From the IMG/VR virus record IMGVR_UViG_3300012956_000013: a stretch of DNA of 12,555 nucleotides. One strand, written 5' to 3'. Below the pieces are notes generated by a model. The model had not been told where the DNA came from. It worked only from the letters and a program-made list of their open reading frames with translations, and searched no databases. A program made the translations under genes and the position numbers. Position 1 is the first letter of the stretch, and each line of letters begins with the position of its first letter. This document shows positions 5,201 to 12,555 of this stretch, piece after piece. The stretch is from a virus (Duplodnaviria; Heunggongvirae; Uroviricota; Caudoviricetes; Crassvirales).

Positions 5201-8182
5201 AATGTCTAATAATTTGACCAATTGACCATCAAGAATTAACATTCGGTTTGATAGCTTATTAAAAATTTCATTTAATTTACCAATATATTTAGATTCAACC
5301 GTTTTATCTGATGTGATTAGGTCTCTAATTTCCGAAATAGCTTTAAACACACCTATATAAATATTAATATCACCAACCATTGCGTTAATTACATCAATAT
5401 CTTCTGACTTATTTACCTCAATTTCCTCACTTAATTTTTTAACTCTTGAAAATAAATCATTAACATATGAAATTACGTATCTTAAATCCTTACCTAAATG
5501 TAAATCAAATATAGCATCATCTATCTCAGAAAGAATAAGTCTATCATTTAATTTACCCTCCTTCAACATTTTGATAAACGTATTTCGTACACCTTTCAAC
5601 TTAATCTTAAGATTATCTCTTATCTCGCTACCGGATTTCTCCTGCTGAGAAATATAAGGTCTAAGAGAGGTCTTCTCTTCTTTTATCGGGTCTACATTTC
5701 CAGCTATTATTTTAGTTAAAACATCCTTTTTGTAAAGCCTACGAATAGGAATTGCTCTTAATTTATTAAATTCCTTTACATTATAATCTTTAGCCAGAAC
5801 ATCTCGATATTGAGATAATTGAATCTCCCACTGATTCTTTTTATAGTCTCTCTCTTCTGATTCATCTTGAACAGTCTTCCAGTCTAAAATACTTAATTTT
5901 CCAGAGGGTTCTATAGCAATAAAGTCAACAGTTCCAATTACACTCTTTTTAATATCTGTATTATCTGAGTATACAATTTGTTCTGATAAAAATCTTGTAC
6001 CAACAGGAAAAGTAGCAAACATTTGCCTCATATATACTTTTACTTGTCTTGCTAGTGCCTGTTCTATAGGAGTTGGATATAGTATATCAGTTAGAGGTCC
6101 TTCTGAATCTCTAAGCAAACCTGTTTCTCCGTCTACCATTGAATTAAATACGTCCTCAAACACAGAGTGTACATATTGACCATCCTTTGCTAATGAGTCA
6201 TAATACTTACGCTTTTCCGGGTCAGATGGTCTATTTCTGAATAGTTTTTCTTTATATTCATTACTTTTATCTGTAACCCTAGGACCTTCCCATAATTTTC
6301 CATCTTTATAGTACTTATTATCTATTTTGGTAAATCCTAAGCTAGCAGCTTTATCTTTAATAGATAGAAATGTAGTTTTTGTTGCAGAAAATTCTGCGTC
6401 TCTTTCATCTATACTCTTTGACGATTTAGAAAAGAATAAACCGTCAGATTCTGAATCATAATTAGTACTATCTAAATCAGAGAATACGCCAAATGCTTCG
6501 TTGTTTTCATTAAGTCTATCTAAAGCCTCCTTAAATGGATTTTTGTAATTAGTAAATGTCTTTCTTATCCAATCTTTTATTGCAGACCACCAAGTATTTA
6601 CTTTCTTTACTTTATCTAGAGATTCAATCTTATTTTCAGTATCAGATATTAAGTACTCTACAAGGAGCTTAGCAATAGCTTCCTTTTTAATTTTACTATA
6701 ATCTAATTTCCCGTCTTTTTGATAATTTGGGTCAGTTGCATATGAAGAGTTTACTAAATCTCTATATAGCTGATAATCAATTACTTCTTTCTCAAGTTTT
6801 CTGAAAAGGTTAGTATCTGCTTGCTCTATCAACTCCACAAGTATATGCATAGCTTCTTCTGGTAGAGTTACATCTTCCTTACCCTCCACAATTTGCATAA
6901 CACCGTTAATCATATCTACATATGCATCATCTTCGATTTCTTCACCATTATGAAAAAGTTTTTTAACTATTTCAATATTTGTAAATCCTATATTTTTTAG
7001 GAAATTCAATACTTTTTGCTTTGTTATTTCTCCAGCTTTTGTAGATTGTAGATTAGATACATCTTTGCTTTCAAAGATTCTAGGAAATGAACTACTAAAG
7101 TCACCAATCTGTACATAAATTGCACCTTCTGTTTCTCTAGTTCTAAGCCAAGTCCATCCATTCTTTTGAATCATTTCTTCCAAGATACGTTTCTTAGTAT
7201 AGTCCTTTTCCTTATCTGGAATATTTGTTCTGGATAACGAATTCCATACTGTAGCTTTAGGAATATAATACCAAGCTCGTTTCTTTCCACCAGCTCCGAA
7301 CTTTTGCACCTTCTTAGATATATATCCTGCATTTTGTAGTTTCTTGAAGATTACTTGTTGTTCAGGTGTAAGGTTATCCTTTGGAGCTTTGGAGAGATAG
7401 ATGTCTCCTTTCTTTTCAGAGTATTTTCCTTTATTAAATAAAGATTTAATATTACTATAAATCTTATTTTCTGGTTGAAAAATTGCGTAAGATATACTAC
7501 CTTTATCCTCTAATTTATTTTCATAATAGTAGCCATCTGCATTAAGTACCTTTTGTAAGGTTGTCTCACCTTTAAGTAGAGATATAGCATCTTCTCTTGT
7601 TATAATACCTGCATCATAGAATGAGATATAAAGATTTCTTCTTTCGTCTTCATTCTCAATCTGTTCGTTACTTTCGTTTCCAATATAATATAATTCCTCA
7701 TACTCCTCCTCTGATATATTCTGAAGACGACTTGATGATAGGTAATCTACTCCTTTTACTAAATTTTTAGCAAATAAGAATACAGGTAGTAATTTATATC
7801 CCTCTTCTTCTAAATCTCTTAGTGCATCTTCTTCACTTGTTCCAAAGTAATCAAGACCTCCGTCATACTTTCTTTCTATTGCTGCCTTCTTCGTTCCAAA
7901 GTGAAATCCTCCTACTACAGAATATTTCTCATCAAATTCATTAAAATCTATATCTGTACCATGCCACAAAAGAAGAGGTTCACCATCTTCTGTAGTTACT
8001 ACATTTGGTGACTTTTCAGTAGTCCAATCCCCTGACCTTGATATAAACGAAGGAGATAGCAGTTGCTCATATAACATGTCTGCCTCTTGGTCAGTATTTA
8101 CCTCTTTTCTTATATCATTCCAAGTCTTAGAAGTAACTTCTTTCCCAGTTCTTGGTGATTTTATTATTCTACATGATGCCAT
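2237..8182 (-). CDS. Giant virion cargo/ejection-type polyvalent protein (1981 aa): ART-like, EExxH peptidase-like, PD-(D/E)XK nuclease, helical and membrane-inserting C-terminal region
   Basis: 5.9-kb open frame. The start is moved from the track's TTG (8188) to the in-frame ATG at 8182, which overlaps the upstream TAA and has AAGGAG 7 nt upstream. Motifs: DGEPLLLWHGT/GFHFGT, LPEEAMH, GTVDF..LDWKT..QLSQY and WFGALTLFILAGLM-KG-DDDDD. Confidence 0.93.
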   Translation of the reverse strand: MASCRIIKSPRTGKEVTSKTWNDIRKEVNTDQEADMLYEQLLSPSFISRSGDWTTEKSPNVVTTEDGEPLLLWHGTDIDFNEFDEKYSVVGGFHFGTKKAAIERKYDGGLDYFGTSEEDALRDLEEEGYKLLPVFLFAKNLVKGVDYLSSSRLQNISEEEYEELYYIGNESNEQIENEDERRNLYISFYDAGIITREDAISLLKGETTLQKVLNADGYYYENKLEDKGSISYAIFQPENKIYSNIKSLFNKGKYSEKKGDIYLSKAPKDNLTPEQQVIFKKLQNAGYISKKVQKFGAGGKKRAWYYIPKATVWNSLSRTNIPDKEKDYTKKRILEEMIQKNGWTWLRTRETEGAIYVQIGDFSSSFPRIFESKDVSNLQSTKAGEITKQKVLNFLKNIGFTNIEIVKKLFHNGEEIEDDAYVDMINGVMQIVEGKEDVTLPEEAMHILVELIEQADTNLFRKLEKEVIDYQLYRDLVNSSYATDPNYQKDGKLDYSKIKKEAIAKLLVEYLISDTENKIESLDKVKKVNTWWSAIKDWIRKTFTNYKNPFKEALDRLNENNEAFGVFSDLDSTNYDSESDGLFFSKSSKSIDERDAEFSATKTTFLSIKDKAASLGFTKIDNKYYKDGKLWEGPRVTDKSNEYKEKLFRNRPSDPEKRKYYDSLAKDGQYVHSVFEDVFNSMVDGETGLLRDSEGPLTDILYPTPIEQALARQVKVYMRQMFATFPVGTRFLSEQIVYSDNTDIKKSVIGTVDFIAIEPSGKLSILDWKTVQDESEERDYKKNQWEIQLSQYRDVLAKDYNVKEFNKLRAIPIRRLYKKDVLTKIIAGNVDPIKEEKTSLRPYISQQEKSGSEIRDNLKIKLKGVRNTFIKMLKEGKLNDRLILSEIDDAIFDLHLGKDLRYVISYVNDLFSRVKKLSEEIEVNKSEDIDVINAMVGDINIYIGVFKAISEIRDLITSDKTVESKYIGKLNEIFNKLSNRMLILDGQLVKLLDISARNNGVYNLPSPEKVVRGLSVHLRAMGDHDIASIRLMYELVKNAYGKIDIETDNELKNLQSLKYKFESFAKEKGVSYQKAIDFLVNRETGKLHSKINKEFYEKRKEVQDSGDSKKILEFVKVNYDIDKWKEWYDKELKENVKVWDNSQVSDDAAENNRIKKLKRAKFEKEYNILKHPKTAFHPFNKYVWSRNLKEELWESEEFKTIKESPILTEIYNFFVKKNKELVDVGAIQEYQMYTFVPNVLKGASDIFSVKDTNTLNKVSNLALQTYRNWKRKISVNDYQLNFQGKIDPETGKKEEKRFIAYTDNVDELYHIRREVASEIVPNFNITPEDKKWELVKNFREESKEQDKLFAQKVISKRNMSFDIFTIYGLMSKEIAKEKYLQKTDDIFKGLRYFEKNVKKNYETDKYGNVKFLGDRPVESDVRGLNADLFDKYFRYHVLGESLQMDSDYTIKFSLKKAWNKLPINDKYKFEITDDDKGGISISKFALWLNNMNTLKTLGLNISSAMSNLFGSSFSADKLHSSKFSKEDLMTAWTKMTSVAFYQSDEMKKQAALVDYFLPLLNNRENFKSQQLSVGQASRILSQDWLMALQRKGDEVVQLNIFFAFIENTGIIDGNITNLRDLAKTEVIPEDYWQKSSEERKELDIKFDNRLKELKEKYAITKIAEFKKEKINGKEETIISLPGIERQSQQVINFRAQVQTISKDATGSADEFDIQTYRMQIMGRLAGTFKNWIPRMGDVRWAEMHYSQSHNSYVYGRFRMLYRGFTANTLSSMAKLVPIPFLTGKLLKNFGREDLIKRAIEVYQRKKEVAEKLGRKEEFLSENEFVEAFMIGYENSLEEVRWFGALTLFILAGLMKGDDDDDAEEKSAKALIRRQIDKMSDEIGFFFNPTSIVDIAKNPFPLMMYVNDFKNLTLNLGRETFGLGMEGLGFEERGEEIRERAKPMKYFFKILPVLKEIINYMPTFDSELGNDWGVKVTDKRGL
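2621..2662 (-). other. Hydrophobic, possibly membrane-inserting helix followed by a poly-Asp tract
   Basis: WFGALTLFILAGLM is followed by KGDDDDD. The uncharged core is only 14 aa, which is short for a full transmembrane span. Confidence 0.55.
5740..6330 (-). other. PD-(D/E)XK (RecB/lambda-exonuclease-like) nuclease domain
   Basis: The ordered motifs are GQYVHSVFE (H at 6169..6167), SEQIV, GTVDF (D at 5926..5924), LDWKT (5887..5873) and QLSQY. No Fe-S cysteines are present. Confidence 0.85.
6560..7030 (-). other. Zincin-like fold with EExxH in place of HExxH
   Basis: LPEEAMH (6865..6845), a distal KKEAIAKLL, and a trailing WWSAIKDWI helix parallel the LWQKFINAIFNLF helix that follows the intact zincin in the upstream protein. 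Confidence 0.6.
7450..8050 (-). other. ART-like domain 3 (ART-PolyVal type)
   Basis: Motifs in order: GDW, DGEPLLLWHGT..FNEF, GFHFGTKKAA, PVFL, and ADGYYYENKLEDKGSISYAIFQP. Confidence 0.8.
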
Positions 8183-11100
8183 TAGCAATCTCCTTTTTTA
8201 AATTGTAAATTATCTAATAATTTTTGACTGGATAACATACCATTGTTCTTTTCTGTCCAATTTTTAAACCCTTCTATATCTTGTTTACTACCTAATACGT
8301 GGATTTGTTCTGGTTCTTTTACTGCAATCCATTTTATTGCGGGAGTATTACTGATTGATTCTACACCTCTTTCTTTGGCACTTAATTGATTTATAATTAT
8401 TGAATCATTGTTAGCAAGATTATACTGTTTTAGATTACCATATTTACTATTCTCTAAACTATTACTTTCTATTGGATTATTACTATCAACTATAGCTGCA
8501 ATTTCATTTTTACTGTTCCCTCCTTCATCTAAATTGATACCAAATACAGTTTTATCTTTTGATGTTTTACTGAAATATATAGGTACTTCATAACCTAATT
8601 CTTTACTAAATCTCTTTTTAAATTTATCAAAAGTACTATCAGTTTGATGATAAACAATATCCTTTACTTTCGATTCATAATTATACTTACCACTTGAAGG
8701 ATTTTTAACAATACCTAAAGATACTCTTGCTATGTAATCTGTATAAGCATTTAACGCATCTTGTTTTTGTTCTAAAGGTGTTTGAATATTTTCATTAGGT
8801 ATAAATCTATTATAGTCCCAAATATCTTTGTATCTTGCAAAATCTAATTTAGCTTTAAAAACATCTTTCCAATTAGCAAGTTGAATTACAGTTCCTTCTT
8901 TAGATTTATAATTAAAGGGGTTATTTAGATTTTTATCAGAATAATTCTCATAACTAAAAAAATCTATAACTTTACCTTCTACACCAGTAACTATTTCTTC
9001 AGATTGATTATTACCTTCTTGTTTTTGGAGTCTGTATGTTCCTACAACATTCCCTTTTGAGTCTATGACATCATAAGAATTAATAATAATTTTACCGTTA
9101 AAATTATCTGCTTTATAATTTGATATAGAGTATCCTTCAGGAGTAATCAAATAACTGTCTGTTATGTATCCATCTCCATAAATATCTCTAACCTTAACAG
9201 CATTAGGGTAAGACTTTAAGAATTTTTCTTCTGTTTCTTTTCTACTAAAAGGGCTAACCCAATCTATATCGTGCAAAGGATTTTCATCAGGTCTTAATAT
9301 AACCCCTTGTTCTGATAATGCTGTACTTCCTGTAAGAATAAACCCTAGTTTAGAAAGCTTGTAAATGATACTTGCTCCAAATTTATCTTTTTTTAAAGCC
9401 TCTTCTATATTTACTTGTTGAGTAGGCTTACCAAAAGCTCCGGGTTTATATAAAGAAGCTGTGATTAATTTTTTATTTTGTTGTAAAACATTGTTACTAA
9501 TTATTCCAATGTTAGTGTTTATCGTATCTATAGGAACAGACATAAACAACTCAAGAAATTTATTAACGAGTTCTTTAATTTTGTCAATTAAAGATTGGTT
9601 ATAATTCCCTTTTATTTTATTCTGTAAATCTTGACTAACAAGTTCGCCAATTAATTTAAAATATTGAGACTTATCTAAATTTTTATATTTATCTGTTTTA
9701 CTAAGTTCTGTAATAATATCTGTTACTAAGGGATTATATTGCATCATATAAGCAATAAATTCTCCAGCTATAATCGGTAAATCTTTTTTATCTTTTATAT
9801 ATGCTATTTTAGATAATAAATCGGCAACCCCTATTTCATCTATTTCTAACTTATCTTTTATTTCATTAATATCTTTAACAGTTATTCCAAATTGATACAA
9901 ATAAGTTTCAAATATCTTAGAAGCGTCTTTTCCTGCTTTTTTTATTAATTCTGAGTTAATTTCAACAGGAGTATATTTTAAATTCTGAGATTGATTATAA
10001 TATTCAATTTCTTTACTTGTAACATCCTCATAACTTTTATTAAAAATTTTCTTAAAAACATTTGGGTTAGATGCTACTGCAAATTTATCCATCTCTTCCC
10101 CTTTAAAATTATAATTAAAAGAAGAAGTAGAGGCTGCATATCCGCTTCTTACCAGTTTATCCGCATAGTCTTTAGGAACAAAAGAAATAAAATCTAAACC
10201 ATTTTTCACAATATTAGGGATAGCTTCAGCAAGAAGTTCTTTACTTGAAGGAGAACTATTTATCCTTGTTATAAATGTTGCTGTATTAATATCATAATTT
10301 CCAAATATATAGGTGTCTTTATGCTTATATACCTGAAAAGTTTTTAAAAGAGATTCAAAAACATCATAAGAAATAGCTTTTCCTTCTCTTTTTCTATTTA
10401 TTAATGCTACATAATTATTATAAATAGTTCTTAGTTTCTCTTTTGTTATGTCTGGTTCTAATTCAAATATTGTAGAAGCAATTGTATTTTGCTTATTTTC
10501 AACCCCGGTAGCTTCGTAATAAACATTCTGTAATTCTTCACTACTTTCAAAAGCATTTTTAGCACCTTCAATAAACTCTTTATTGCTAAGTCTTTCTTGT
10601 AGTTCATCAAACTTTTTAACTTGTTCTTGTTGATTACCTTGAAGTACAGGATTAGTATTAGGTTTATTTAGTGATTGTTGAAATTGTTGGAAAGAGTTGT
10701 TTTCTTGAGATTTTTGAGATATAAAGTTTGCTAATCTAGTATTATCATTAATATTACTTACATTATAAAATTTAAAATTATTAATCTGTATTATACTATT
10801 TAATTTATCAAAAGTAGATATTTTATATGTTTCAGTTTTATATTTAGAGGTTTTATTAAATAAATTAAATATTGCATTTATAAATTTTTGCCATAAAGAT
10901 AAACTTGTTTCTTTTTCTTCTTCTATGCTTTCAAGTAACTGCTTAAATAAAGGATTTGAAAAAGCTTCTGATAAAAATTCATGTTCGTCTTTTAATCCAT
11001 ATATAGAATCTTTATTGTCTTTTTGATACTTTTTACCTGTTTTATTTTTTACTTCTTTTATCAACTCTTTTATCTCATTTTTAAATGAAATATCATAATT

Positions 11101-12555
11101 AATTGCTAGATGTGTAACACCATGAATTAATTCGTGTGCTAATAATTGAAAAGCTCCCTTATCTATGCGAAGATTTTCTTCATATATATAAATTGAATTG
11201 GTATTAGGTTGATACCAAGCAGCAACTCCTTCTTCTGAAAACTCTTTATTAGAAAATACAACTACCTTAATATTTTTAGCATTTTTAACTGCATCTTTGA
11301 TTAAAGGATTGTCTATAAGTTCTATTGCATATTTTAATATATCAGTAGAATCATCGTTATAAAATTCTTTAACAATTACAGGTTTTATGCCTTTTTCACT
11401 AGTTTCTCTCTTTTCTTTAATTATCTGCTTTACTTTAGCATCTAATACATTTTGTCTATTTTCTTCTGATATTTGTGATATTTTAGAAGTTAATTTATAA
11501 AAACCTTTGACAAATCTTTTTGGAAACTTGAAAGTTTTACCATCAGCAGTTTCAAAAACAAAAGTTTCAGATTTACTATTATTTAATTCTTTTTTAACTT
11601 GGTCAAATACAGATGAAGTAAACCCAAATGAAAATATTTTATCGAAATTTTCTTTAACGGAATTTTCTATAACTTCATTTTGTTTTTCTAGAATTTCATA
11701 AAAATTAGGATAAACTTTACTTTCTCCTATAAACATAATATGTTCAGGGTACACACCAGTTTGATTTAATACTTCAGATAAAGAAGGACTTCTATCTCTT
11801 GAAAATCCCCCAAAAAAAGCAAAATCTTTTTTACTTGTATCATATTGTACATTATCAAAAGTAATTTCATCTATACTTTTAACATTTGCTCCTGATGCTC
11901 TATTAAACAACATTAAAGCTAAATCATCATCTTTTAATGATGAGCTATTAAAATCTCCTTGTTTATTATCAGAAAATATTTGAATATTAGAATTTAATTT
12001 TTGATTATTTTTATTAAACTTATCAACCCAACTTTTAAACCTTTTTATATCTTGTTTACTACCTAATATATGAATTTGTTCTGGTTCAAATACCACGTAT
12101 TCACTCGCTTCAGGTTCATCTAATATATAAGCGTCATTAGTTGTAGGTTTATTCTTTATTTTACCAAATTCATTATAATCAAAATCTTCTGTATTTTTAA
12201 ATATTTTAGGATTAATTGTATTAATTAATACAGGTATATTTTCACCACCTTTTTTATTATAAGGTTTATTTATATCAACTCTTCTATATTGAGTTGCATA
12301 ATTAAAATCTTTTGTAAAATAAATACCTTTACCATAATTAAATGTACTATCGGTAAATTCTTGTATATCATTAGCTGTACCATGATAAACAATATCTTTT
12401 ACTTTAGATTCTGGAAAAATAGTATCAAGATATTGAGAGTATAGTTGTTGAGCTTGTTGTTTATAGTCTATGTTAAACTTCAAACTTTGTTCATCAGCGG
12501 TAGCTCTATTTACAACTCCTTCTTTTATTAAAGAATTCCATAATCTCCTTGCATC
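8182..12555 (-). CDS. Giant polyvalent virion cargo protein, 5'-truncated (at least 1457 aa)
   Basis: The frame stays open upstream of the track's TTG (12483) to the window edge, adding DARRLWNSLIKEGVVNRATADEQS, so the true start lies outside the window. It contains two ART-like modules, an HELIH zincin and a nucleotidyltransferase motif set, and ends KKGDC-TAA. Confidence 0.93.
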   Translation of the reverse strand, partial: DARRLWNSLIKEGVVNRATADEQSLKFNIDYKQQAQQLYSQYLDTIFPESKVKDIVYHGTANDIQEFTDSTFNYGKGIYFTKDFNYATQYRRVDINKPYNKKGGENIPVLINTINPKIFKNTEDFDYNEFGKIKNKPTTNDAYILDEPEASEYVVFEPEQIHILGSKQDIKRFKSWVDKFNKNNQKLNSNIQIFSDNKQGDFNSSSLKDDDLALMLFNRASGANVKSIDEITFDNVQYDTSKKDFAFFGGFSRDRSPSLSEVLNQTGVYPEHIMFIGESKVYPNFYEILEKQNEVIENSVKENFDKIFSFGFTSSVFDQVKKELNNSKSETFVFETADGKTFKFPKRFVKGFYKLTSKISQISEENRQNVLDAKVKQIIKEKRETSEKGIKPVIVKEFYNDDSTDILKYAIELIDNPLIKDAVKNAKNIKVVVFSNKEFSEEGVAAWYQPNTNSIYIYEENLRIDKGAFQLLAHELIHGVTHLAINYDISFKNEIKELIKEVKNKTGKKYQKDNKDSIYGLKDEHEFLSEAFSNPLFKQLLESIEEEKETSLSLWQKFINAIFNLFNKTSKYKTETYKISTFDKLNSIIQINNFKFYNVSNINDNTRLANFISQKSQENNSFQQFQQSLNKPNTNPVLQGNQQEQVKKFDELQERLSNKEFIEGAKNAFESSEELQNVYYEATGVENKQNTIASTIFELEPDITKEKLRTIYNNYVALINRKREGKAISYDVFESLLKTFQVYKHKDTYIFGNYDINTATFITRINSSPSSKELLAEAIPNIVKNGLDFISFVPKDYADKLVRSGYAASTSSFNYNFKGEEMDKFAVASNPNVFKKIFNKSYEDVTSKEIEYYNQSQNLKYTPVEINSELIKKAGKDASKIFETYLYQFGITVKDINEIKDKLEIDEIGVADLLSKIAYIKDKKDLPIIAGEFIAYMMQYNPLVTDIITELSKTDKYKNLDKSQYFKLIGELVSQDLQNKIKGNYNQSLIDKIKELVNKFLELFMSVPIDTINTNIGIISNNVLQQNKKLITASLYKPGAFGKPTQQVNIEEALKKDKFGASIIYKLSKLGFILTGSTALSEQGVILRPDENPLHDIDWVSPFSRKETEEKFLKSYPNAVKVRDIYGDGYITDSYLITPEGYSISNYKADNFNGKIIINSYDVIDSKGNVVGTYRLQKQEGNNQSEEIVTGVEGKVIDFFSYENYSDKNLNNPFNYKSKEGTVIQLANWKDVFKAKLDFARYKDIWDYNRFIPNENIQTPLEQKQDALNAYTDYIARVSLGIVKNPSSGKYNYESKVKDIVYHQTDSTFDKFKKRFSKELGYEVPIYFSKTSKDKTVFGINLDEGGNSKNEIAAIVDSNNPIESNSLENSKYGNLKQYNLANNDSIIINQLSAKERGVESISNTPAIKWIAVKEPEQIHVLGSKQDIEGFKNWTEKNNGMLSSQKLLDNLQFKKGDC
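8190..8195 (-). promoter_or_regulatory. Shine-Dalgarno-like AAGGAG upstream of the 1981-aa gene
   Basis: The minus strand reads AAGGAG-ATTGCTA-ATG (7-nt spacer). It also encodes KGD of the upstream protein, so it may be coincidental. Confidence 0.4.
8275..8316. repeat. Dispersed direct repeat A, copy 2 (partner 12046..12087)
   Basis: tatatcttgtttactacctaataCGtgGatttgttctggttc versus tatatcttgtttactacctaataTAtgAatttgttctggttc, 39/42 identical; encodes EPEQIH(I/V)LGSKQDI. Confidence 0.9.
8647..8676. repeat. Dispersed direct repeat B, copy 2 (partner 12382..12411)
   Basis: atgataaacaatatcCtttactttCgattc versus atgataaacaatatcTtttactttAgattc, 28/30 identical; encodes ESKVKDIVYH. Confidence 0.9.
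8810..9370 (-). other. Pol-beta superfamily nucleotidyltransferase domain, AbiEii/MenT-like motif set
   Basis: Motifs in order: FILTGSTAL (G-S at 9330..9325), R..HDIDW (9273..9259), strand KVIDFF, and C-terminal KAKLDFARYKDIWD (8856..8815). Confidence 0.75.
10850..11300 (-). other. Zincin metallopeptidase domain (polyvalent-protein MPTase type)
   Basis: Motifs in order: AAWYQPNTNSIYI, AHELIHGVT (HELIH at 11136..11122), and distal YGLKDEHEFLSEAFSNPLF. Confidence 0.88.
12046..12087. repeat. Dispersed direct repeat A, copy 1
   Basis: 39/42 identical to 8275..8316. Confidence 0.9.
12382..12411. repeat. Dispersed direct repeat B, copy 1
   Basis: 28/30 identical to 8647..8676. Confidence 0.9.

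Follow-up and report, generated by a model that had tools for sequence, protein, structure and literature searches.

Near-invariant linker DNA around ADP-ribosyltransferase cassettes of a phage polyvalent protein as a probable site of cassette exchange

The DNA considered here is a stretch of 12,555 nucleotides (the window) from the uncultured virus IMGVR_UViG_3300012956_000013. All of its genes lie on the minus strand. One of them, P0001, carries two ADP-ribosyltransferase (ART) cassettes, an N-terminal (N) and a C-terminal (C) copy, each with a core bracketed by two short stretches of DNA, here called arms, that are almost identical in the two copies. The question raised by this locus is why the DNA should be so well conserved at the edges of a domain when the core between them is so different. 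A first-pass annotation proposed that the arms provide short homology through which cores are exchanged. The analysis described here leads us to consider it probable that effector cassettes move among the polyvalent proteins of phages by homologous recombination, with conserved linker DNA as the place of crossover.

Arm A, of 42 nucleotides (nt), is found at 12046-12087 and at 8275-8316, with 39/42 positions identical; arm B, of 30 nt, is found at 12382-12411 and at 8647-8676 (28/30). The positions and identities first reported are therefore confirmed, and no chance second match to either arm was produced in 200 dinucleotide-preserving shuffles. A repeat search lengthens arm A to 69 nt (86% identity) and arm B to 58 nt (74%). 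Both arms are repeated in direct orientation on the minus strand, inside a single open reading frame (ORF), and the spacing between copies (3771 nt for arm A, 3735 nt for arm B) is in both cases a multiple of 3. The DNA islands shared with other contigs are longer than these arms, and cover 12358-12476, 12004-12112, 8617-8789 and 8243-8334. When 8182-12555 is compared with other arm-bearing loci, only five DNA islands match: the four arms, and a second linker at 10546-10700.

The cores had been described as unalignable. As DNA they are, being only 52% identical in a codon-guided alignment, but at the protein level the two domains are clearly related, with a BLASTP identity of 34% (E 4e-17, arms included). 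The N copy matches the Pfam ART-PolyVal family PF18760 with 41.6 bits over residues 20-215, and with 45.4 bits when the cassette is searched alone. The C copy, with 24.9 bits, falls below the gathering cut-off of 31.2 bits; it is nevertheless homologous to the N copy and is therefore labelled ART-PolyVal-like. Searched as a whole against Pfam, P0001 gives no match at E 0.01.

AlphaFold generates a model of the N cassette with a predicted local distance difference test (pLDDT) score of 84.9. Foldseek places the catalytic domains of PARP13, tankyrase and PARP1 at the top of its matches to this model (TM 0.49–0.57, probability 1.00), and the cassette is predicted on this basis to have a PARP-like ART fold. 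In the model the inner part of the 5' arm forms strand 1, which carries the His, and the 3' arm starts directly after the strand that aligns with the catalytic-Glu strand of PARP. This bears out the original observation that the arms begin at the catalytic His and just after the last core strand. The H-Y-acidic site of such ARTs places His on strand 1, Tyr on strand 2 and Asp/Glu on strand 5 (Iyer, Burroughs, Anand, de Souza and Aravind, 2017, PMC5512222). Both ART copies in P0001 have the His and the Tyr. In the N copy a candidate catalytic residue is Glu 152, whose strand aligns with the Glu strand of PARP; the C copy has Trp in this column. The column varies across 53 arm-bracketed cassettes (E 19, Q 9, N 7, V 7, D 3). 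A further fold match, of the model of 12028-12450 (minus strand), is to chain 9k3a_B of the cyanophage A4 pre-ejectosome (TM 0.52 by query), which hints that the solved structures of ejected phage proteins include ART-like domains.

Each arm forms one half of a helix-turn-helix linker, in which a YSQYL helix is followed by a LGSKQDIEGFK helix. ART cassettes add to each arm an inner, ART-specific extension. The outer 5' arm of the N cassette is 88–92% identical in DNA to arms of many viral contigs, and also precedes P-loop kinase cassettes. The C cassette has a variant 5' arm with relatives in five loci (L052, L084, L088, L091 and L100), and its 3' arm is identical to L017/L018 at 53/54 nt.

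Synonymous sites in the arms are conserved well beyond what codon bias would give. With the codon usage of the window's two genes as expectation, arm A and the tail following it use the same codon at 24/26 identical residues, compared to 14.6 expected (P 3.5e-5). Identical residues in the core share their codon at 10/19 positions, compared to 11.0 expected; arm A with its tail thus exceeds the codon-bias null, as the exchange proposal had anticipated, and the core does not. The test was extended to 73 distinct arms from other contigs, with the usage of each ORF as its own null. At every position of the 3' arm the commonest codon stands above the usage of its own ORF, for example Ile ATA at 96% compared to 47%, Gly GGA at 79% compared to 38% and Ser TCT at 67% compared to 38%. 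In both arms a single residue type is fixed to different codons depending on its position (ATA/ATT, GTA/GTT, TCT/AGT, CCT/CCA), and conserved core positions with three to four codons lie near the codon null. Such position-specific fixation cannot be produced by codon bias, but can be produced by identity by descent.

The arms are widespread. Three other viral contigs contain arm A by exact search; in these only the arms match the window (88–98%), and the cores do not. A degenerate pattern for the 3'-arm peptide, unbiased as to codon, is present in at least 83 viral contigs, which are AT-rich (GC 0.22–0.49) and have near-identical DNA at this place. Relatives of the N cassette number 1072 at E 0.001 among 50%-identity representatives. 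In 185,579 species genomes the arm pattern is found in only 10 contigs, all in metagenome bins of scattered taxa, and the arm element therefore appears largely confined to viral sequence; these contigs (L102-L111) are most likely phage contigs that have been mis-binned. The bins carry labels including Rickettsiales, Nitrososphaeraceae, Patescibacteria, Bacilli and Bacteroidia.

The 53 arm-bracketed cassettes comprise 29 ART-PolyVal domains, some R-type ARTs, 2 AAA_33/zeta-toxin kinases and other P-loop modules, so that ARTs of both H-type and R-type share the same outer arms, and the 3' arm also stands after a zincin module. The arms are thus a general linker of polyvalent proteins, and are not specific to ARTs. 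Exchange as first proposed is supported, but the unit exchanged is not a specificity core: it is nearly the whole domain, and includes enzymes other than ARTs. For 38 cassettes the median core identity is 22% as protein, while the arms are 85–86% identical as DNA. Arm DNA identity shows almost no correlation with core identity (Spearman 0.07 and 0.14), compared to 0.44 between one arm and the other. The core of the N copy has no DNA match among 86 arm-bearing loci.

The places where loci start and stop resembling each other are concentrated at the arms. An all-against-all blastn comparison of 87 loci gave 7264 short matches, 84% of which fall on an arm. For long matches, defined as at least 250 nt and 80% identity, 44/90 internal ends lie no more than 40 nt from an arm, compared to 2.4 expected and a null maximum of 8 in 1000 trials. 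Individual pairs illustrate this well. The only stretch shared by L019 and L074 is a kinase cassette of 536 nt, running from arm to arm at 90.5% identity. The last 489 nt of L060, beginning at the 3' arm, are 100% identical in L100, and the two are unmatched before that arm. L029 and L097 share 5.3 kb at 99.8% identity; a block of 1.6 kb that comes next, and that includes the ART core, has been replaced, with identity returning at the 3' arm. One candidate junction was discarded: L032 (2423-2686) and L082 (1-334) differ by an indel of 69 nt that abuts the 5' arm on its upstream side, in 2.7 kb of otherwise identical DNA, and this is not a swap.

The two segments of P0001 that lie between the ART cassettes, modules B and C, allow the same sites to be seen without a cassette. 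Module B is 90.7% identical in DNA to L112 over 1349 nt; the match begins at 12040, inside the 3' arm of the N copy, and ends at 10701, so that it is bounded by the 3' arm and the second linker. Module C is 91.4% identical to L113 over 1746 nt (10506-8761), ending at the 5' arm of the C copy. At the places where the window has ARTs, L112 (6682-6802) and L113 (4050-4130) have an empty linker, consisting of the first helix, a turn of NPNG type and the second helix, with no cassette. Both ART sites of the window are therefore known in a filled and an empty state. The empty-linker motif occurs 13 times in 12/266 proteins examined, and is predicted to form a helix-turn-helix, with a central pLDDT of 86–87. 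A further arrangement is seen in L114, where module B runs straight into a cassette of C type, with 78% DNA identity that extends through the core, but with a 5' arm of N type (90%). Thus, as proposed, cores do not co-vary with their flanks: the correlations are close to zero, the junctions lie at arms, and a C-type core can be found behind an N-type arm. Codon fixation, the location of junctions and the decoupling of arms from cores together support the idea that short homology in the arms permits exchange.

Several observations weigh against this reading. Exchange is deduced from a pattern in assembled contigs, and no event has been seen directly. All the relatives are metagenome assemblies, in which mis-joins are possible at shared repeats. 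The loci were gathered by means of the 3' arm, so that the sample is biased towards arm-bearing genes, although the null for the junction test was drawn from the same loci. Arm B taken alone within the window shares its codon at 8/11 residues, which falls short of significance (P 0.14). Conservation is also strong in the arm peptides themselves, the 3' motif being present in 81 and the 5' motif in 54 of the 150 best representative proteins, and part of the DNA identity must therefore come from protein constraint. Finally, there is no recombinase gene in the window.

Four alternatives need to be weighed. The first is that arm DNA is maintained for a function in cis, as an RNA structure, antisense RNA, internal promoter or translational pause, and that recombination is incidental. 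Conservation at synonymous sites is just what such an element would be expected to show, but the window has no match in Rfam, the folding of the arms differs little from that of shuffled sequences on either strand (z +0.3 to -1.1), and promoter-like sites number 23, compared to 29.7 expected, with no terminators. Moreover, every in-frame arm copy examined lies inside one long ORF, in the frame of the arm peptide. We therefore regard a function in cis as unlikely.

A second possibility, raised as a caveat in the first-pass annotation, is that the identity of the arms is a by-product of protein constraint combined with AT-biased codons, and has no role in recombination. For arm A the caveat fails, on the codon counts given above; for arm B within the window it may still apply, and at residues with two codons the AT-rich one would in any case be expected about 80% of the time. 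Against it, residues with three to six codons are fixed far more often than expected, and the codon that is fixed changes with the position, while core positions with conserved residues remain near the null; mosaic junctions also coincide with the arms. This explanation is largely refuted by the position-specific fixation, and we give it rather little weight.

The mosaic junctions could in principle be assembly chimeras, produced where assemblers collapse shared arms. The relatives are all short-read assemblies, and arms are the only sequence common to many co-occurring phages; however, the same architectures are found in independent samples (L019/L023, L020/L026 and L017/L018), ORFs remain open across every junction examined, and the exact runs shared by arms are about 20–55 nt, mostly below typical final k-mers. 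The evidence from codons is independent of how contigs are joined. Chimeras are accordingly a very unlikely explanation.

The least probable of the four, which we consider highly improbable, is a recent duplication of the ART within the gene, followed by rapid divergence of the cores under diversifying selection while the flanks were kept. The copies are homologous, and the stretch after arm A shares 12/12 codons with the C-terminal tail, but the synonymous sites of the cores are at the codon-bias null, which implies that the cores are old. Each core also has closer relatives elsewhere: the C core has an ortholog in a different context (P0156/L114), with 62.5% protein and 78% DNA identity, and the N core is 47% identical to its best match, P0003, arms included. 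The arms of the N copy resemble those of unrelated contigs at least as closely as those of the sister copy, at 63/78 for the sister compared to 63–65 for the best unrelated contigs, and at 47/91 compared to 80/91. Because the copies in the window resemble each other no more than they resemble arms from unrelated contigs, there is no sign of conversion between them, and window-specific gene conversion is not supported. A diversity-generating retroelement was set aside, since the differences between the cores are not confined to A positions, the cores being unalignable, and the window has no reverse transcriptase.

On the basis of these observations, we hypothesise that exchange by homologous recombination operates as follows. 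P0001 would resemble beads on a string, a short helix-turn-helix linker holding each ART cassette in its loop. The 5' arm would encode the first helix, together in ART cassettes with strand 1 and its His, and the 3' arm the last strands and the second helix; the two helices may pack together as a hairpin. The DNA of each half of the linker is near-invariant across many phages that are otherwise unalignable. During co-infection, homologous or relaxed homologous recombination would then cross over within the arms, so that whole cassettes are inserted, deleted or replaced, and this could work between positions, between genes and between phages. As both halves are present at empty and at filled sites, a double crossover could insert, remove or replace a cassette anywhere that has the linker. 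Phage single-strand annealing recombinases are known to recombine short and diverged homologies. The first-pass annotation referred to a cassette-swapping system, which overstates the case, as no dedicated recombination machinery is seen in the window. It also pointed to an in-frame deletion by recombination between the two copies. For arm A this would by arithmetic remove 3771 nt, and is plausible because natural relatives lack module C or the ARTs.

A more general form of the idea can be put forward only tentatively. The linker might be a universal landing pad, its DNA kept near-invariant across a large group of AT-rich and probably Crassvirales-like phages because it would allow a cassette for any injected effector to enter or leave any polyvalent protein through ordinary homologous recombination. 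Such an arrangement would be integron-like, at the level of protein domains and with no dedicated integrase, and the invariance would be kept by selection for exchangeability or by a dedicated mechanism.

It is useful to compare this arrangement with known systems. Polyvalent proteins, together with their extensive mosaicism and their H-Y-D ARTs, of which one protein may have as many as 12, were defined by Iyer et al. (2017, PMC5512222). P0001 resembles them in being a giant phage chain that carries several effectors; in polyvalent proteins, ARTs of the Tox-ART-HYD2 clade are present in one to many copies, accompanied by zincin-like peptidases and kinases. The nucleotide-conserved exchange linker, the empty and filled sites and the decoupling of arm and core are not described in that account, in whose text the terms 'linker' and 'shuffl' are absent, and literature searches found no description of a nucleotide-conserved linker as a site of cassette exchange. 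P0001 may be delivered into the host, where, by analogy with the proposals of Iyer et al. (2017) and the precedent of T4 Alt, the ART cassettes would ADP-ribosylate host targets.

Polymorphic toxins such as CdiA, Rhs and MafB (Zhang et al., 2012, PMC3482391) likewise have variable enzyme domains behind a conserved motif, whose DNA permits replacement by recombination. They have a single pre-toxin motif where there are two arms here, and the cassettes of P0001 and its relatives are internal as well as terminal. The present cassettes also lack immunity genes, orphan cassette arrays and a secretion-system N-terminal domain, and their carrier is a phage protein of virion type. The gene that follows P0001 encodes not a small immunity protein but a polyvalent protein of 1983 residues, and the N-terminus of P0001 lies outside the window. 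A second comparison is with hsdS shufflons, inversion systems and integron cassettes, which also place alternative modules at defined borders. The arms differ in being in-frame direct repeats, and are neither inverted repeats nor attC sites. No recombinase family, invertases and integrases included, was found among the ORFs of the window, and the variation is between genomes rather than a phase variation.

A third comparison is with phage modules. The adhesins of T-even tail fibres are reportedly swapped at conserved motifs, in work attributed to Tetart and colleagues in 1998, and 'linker sequences' are said to belong to the modular theory of phage evolution of Susskind and Botstein (1978) and Botstein (1980). 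In both, as here, short conserved module borders provide homology between diverged phages. The differences are that the unit here is a single domain inside one ORF, and not a block of genes or a receptor-binding segment, and that one linker recurs across many genomes that are otherwise unalignable.

Polyvalent proteins are regarded as the first weapons that a phage delivers into the cell, and the fast turnover of their domains has so far had no mechanistic explanation. A nucleotide-conserved linker with empty and filled states offers a concrete and testable mechanism of domain exchange between unrelated phages. The two arms also provide a sequence handle for cataloguing the cassette repertoire in viromes, including cassettes of no known family, and the design of a helix-turn-helix with an insert may serve as a template for modular protein engineering.

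The features of the window are collected in Table 1.

Table 1. Coordinates of the features of P0001 and P0002 within the window.
Feature	Position	Strand	Remarks
P0001	8182-12555	-	1457-residue ORF; 5' end open, N-terminus beyond the window
Outer 5' arm, N cassette	12421-12462	-	Helix ending in YSQYL; universal linker half; helix 2-11 of the AlphaFold model
Inner ART-specific 5' arm, N cassette	12376-12420	-	Strand 1 with the NAD-site His (VYHGT); includes arm B
N-terminal ART-PolyVal core	12088-12381	-	Pfam PF18760
3' arm, N cassette	12028-12087	-	EPEQIHI strands, then LGSKQDI..FK helix; includes arm A
Module B	10701-12040	-	HExxH (zincin-like) motif at 11122-11136
Second linker ('NKPNTNP' type)	10540-10700	-	DNA island at the border of modules B and C
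Module C	8761-10506	-	About 600 residues; GS...DxD motif at 9262-9330
Variant 5' arm, C cassette	8641-8772	-	Extra insert ahead of the inner arm; includes the arm B copy
C-terminal ART-PolyVal-like core	8317-8646	-	Below the Pfam cut-off
3' arm, C cassette	8257-8316	-	Includes the arm A copy
C-terminal tail and stop codon	8182-8256	-	Similar to the sequence downstream of the N cassette's 3' arm
P0002	2237-8188	-	1983-residue ORF; overlaps the stop of P0001
Third ART-PolyVal domain, N-terminus of P0002	7472-7990	-	Pfam 31.5 bits on the segment; arms decayed at the DNA level
PD-(D/E)XK nuclease domain of P0002	5726-6187	-	Further along P0002

Modules B and C had been annotated as a zincin and a nucleotidyltransferase. 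Neither label has support from Pfam, each being based on a short motif: module B on its HExxH motif, and module C on its GS...DxD motif, a possible signature of a nucleotidyltransferase. Metagenome contigs contain no exact match to a 29-nt pattern taken where module B starts. Module C is the only part of P0001 shared by the first 15 related viral loci, at 53–70% protein identity, and in the stretch compared the ARTs are absent there. The second linker is about 89–90% identical in DNA to L018, L052, L084 and L091, with unmatched flanks. The tail of P0001 (8182-8256) can be aligned with the start of module B at 11953-12027, with the same codon at 12/12 identical residues; P0001 appears to end where another module B would begin, and its last residue is Cys.

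P0001 has two ART cassettes and the HExxH module, and hence at least two domains of effector type in one polypeptide; it is a polyvalent (multi-effector) protein of an uncultured, probably crAss-like phage. The gene has no blastn match among 50,697 phage records, and tblastn against these records gives weak crAss-like matches in the HExxH region only; these, with PHROG 37402, fall at residues 444-611, in module B. The weak matches to crAss-like genes and the fold match to a cyanophage pre-ejectosome are hints that P0001 may be packaged in the virion. By BLASTP, relatives of P0001 cover at most 53% of the protein and mostly about 40%, and the ends of their matches cluster at residues 20-60, 160-200, 620-700, 1240-1280 and 1420-1457.

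P0002 carries an ART and a PD-(D/E)XK domain. Its ART is more diverged than the two ART copies of P0001, and in the repeat search shares no DNA repeat with them. P0002 is followed by an ORF of 79 residues and then by a collagen-repeat gene resembling those of tail fibres. The collagen-like ORF, at 2-1876 on the minus strand, has 625 residues and runs off the end of the window; it contains Gly-X-Y repeats with a period of 9 nt, and matches Pfam Collagen (E 1e-63) and PHROG tail-fibre families.

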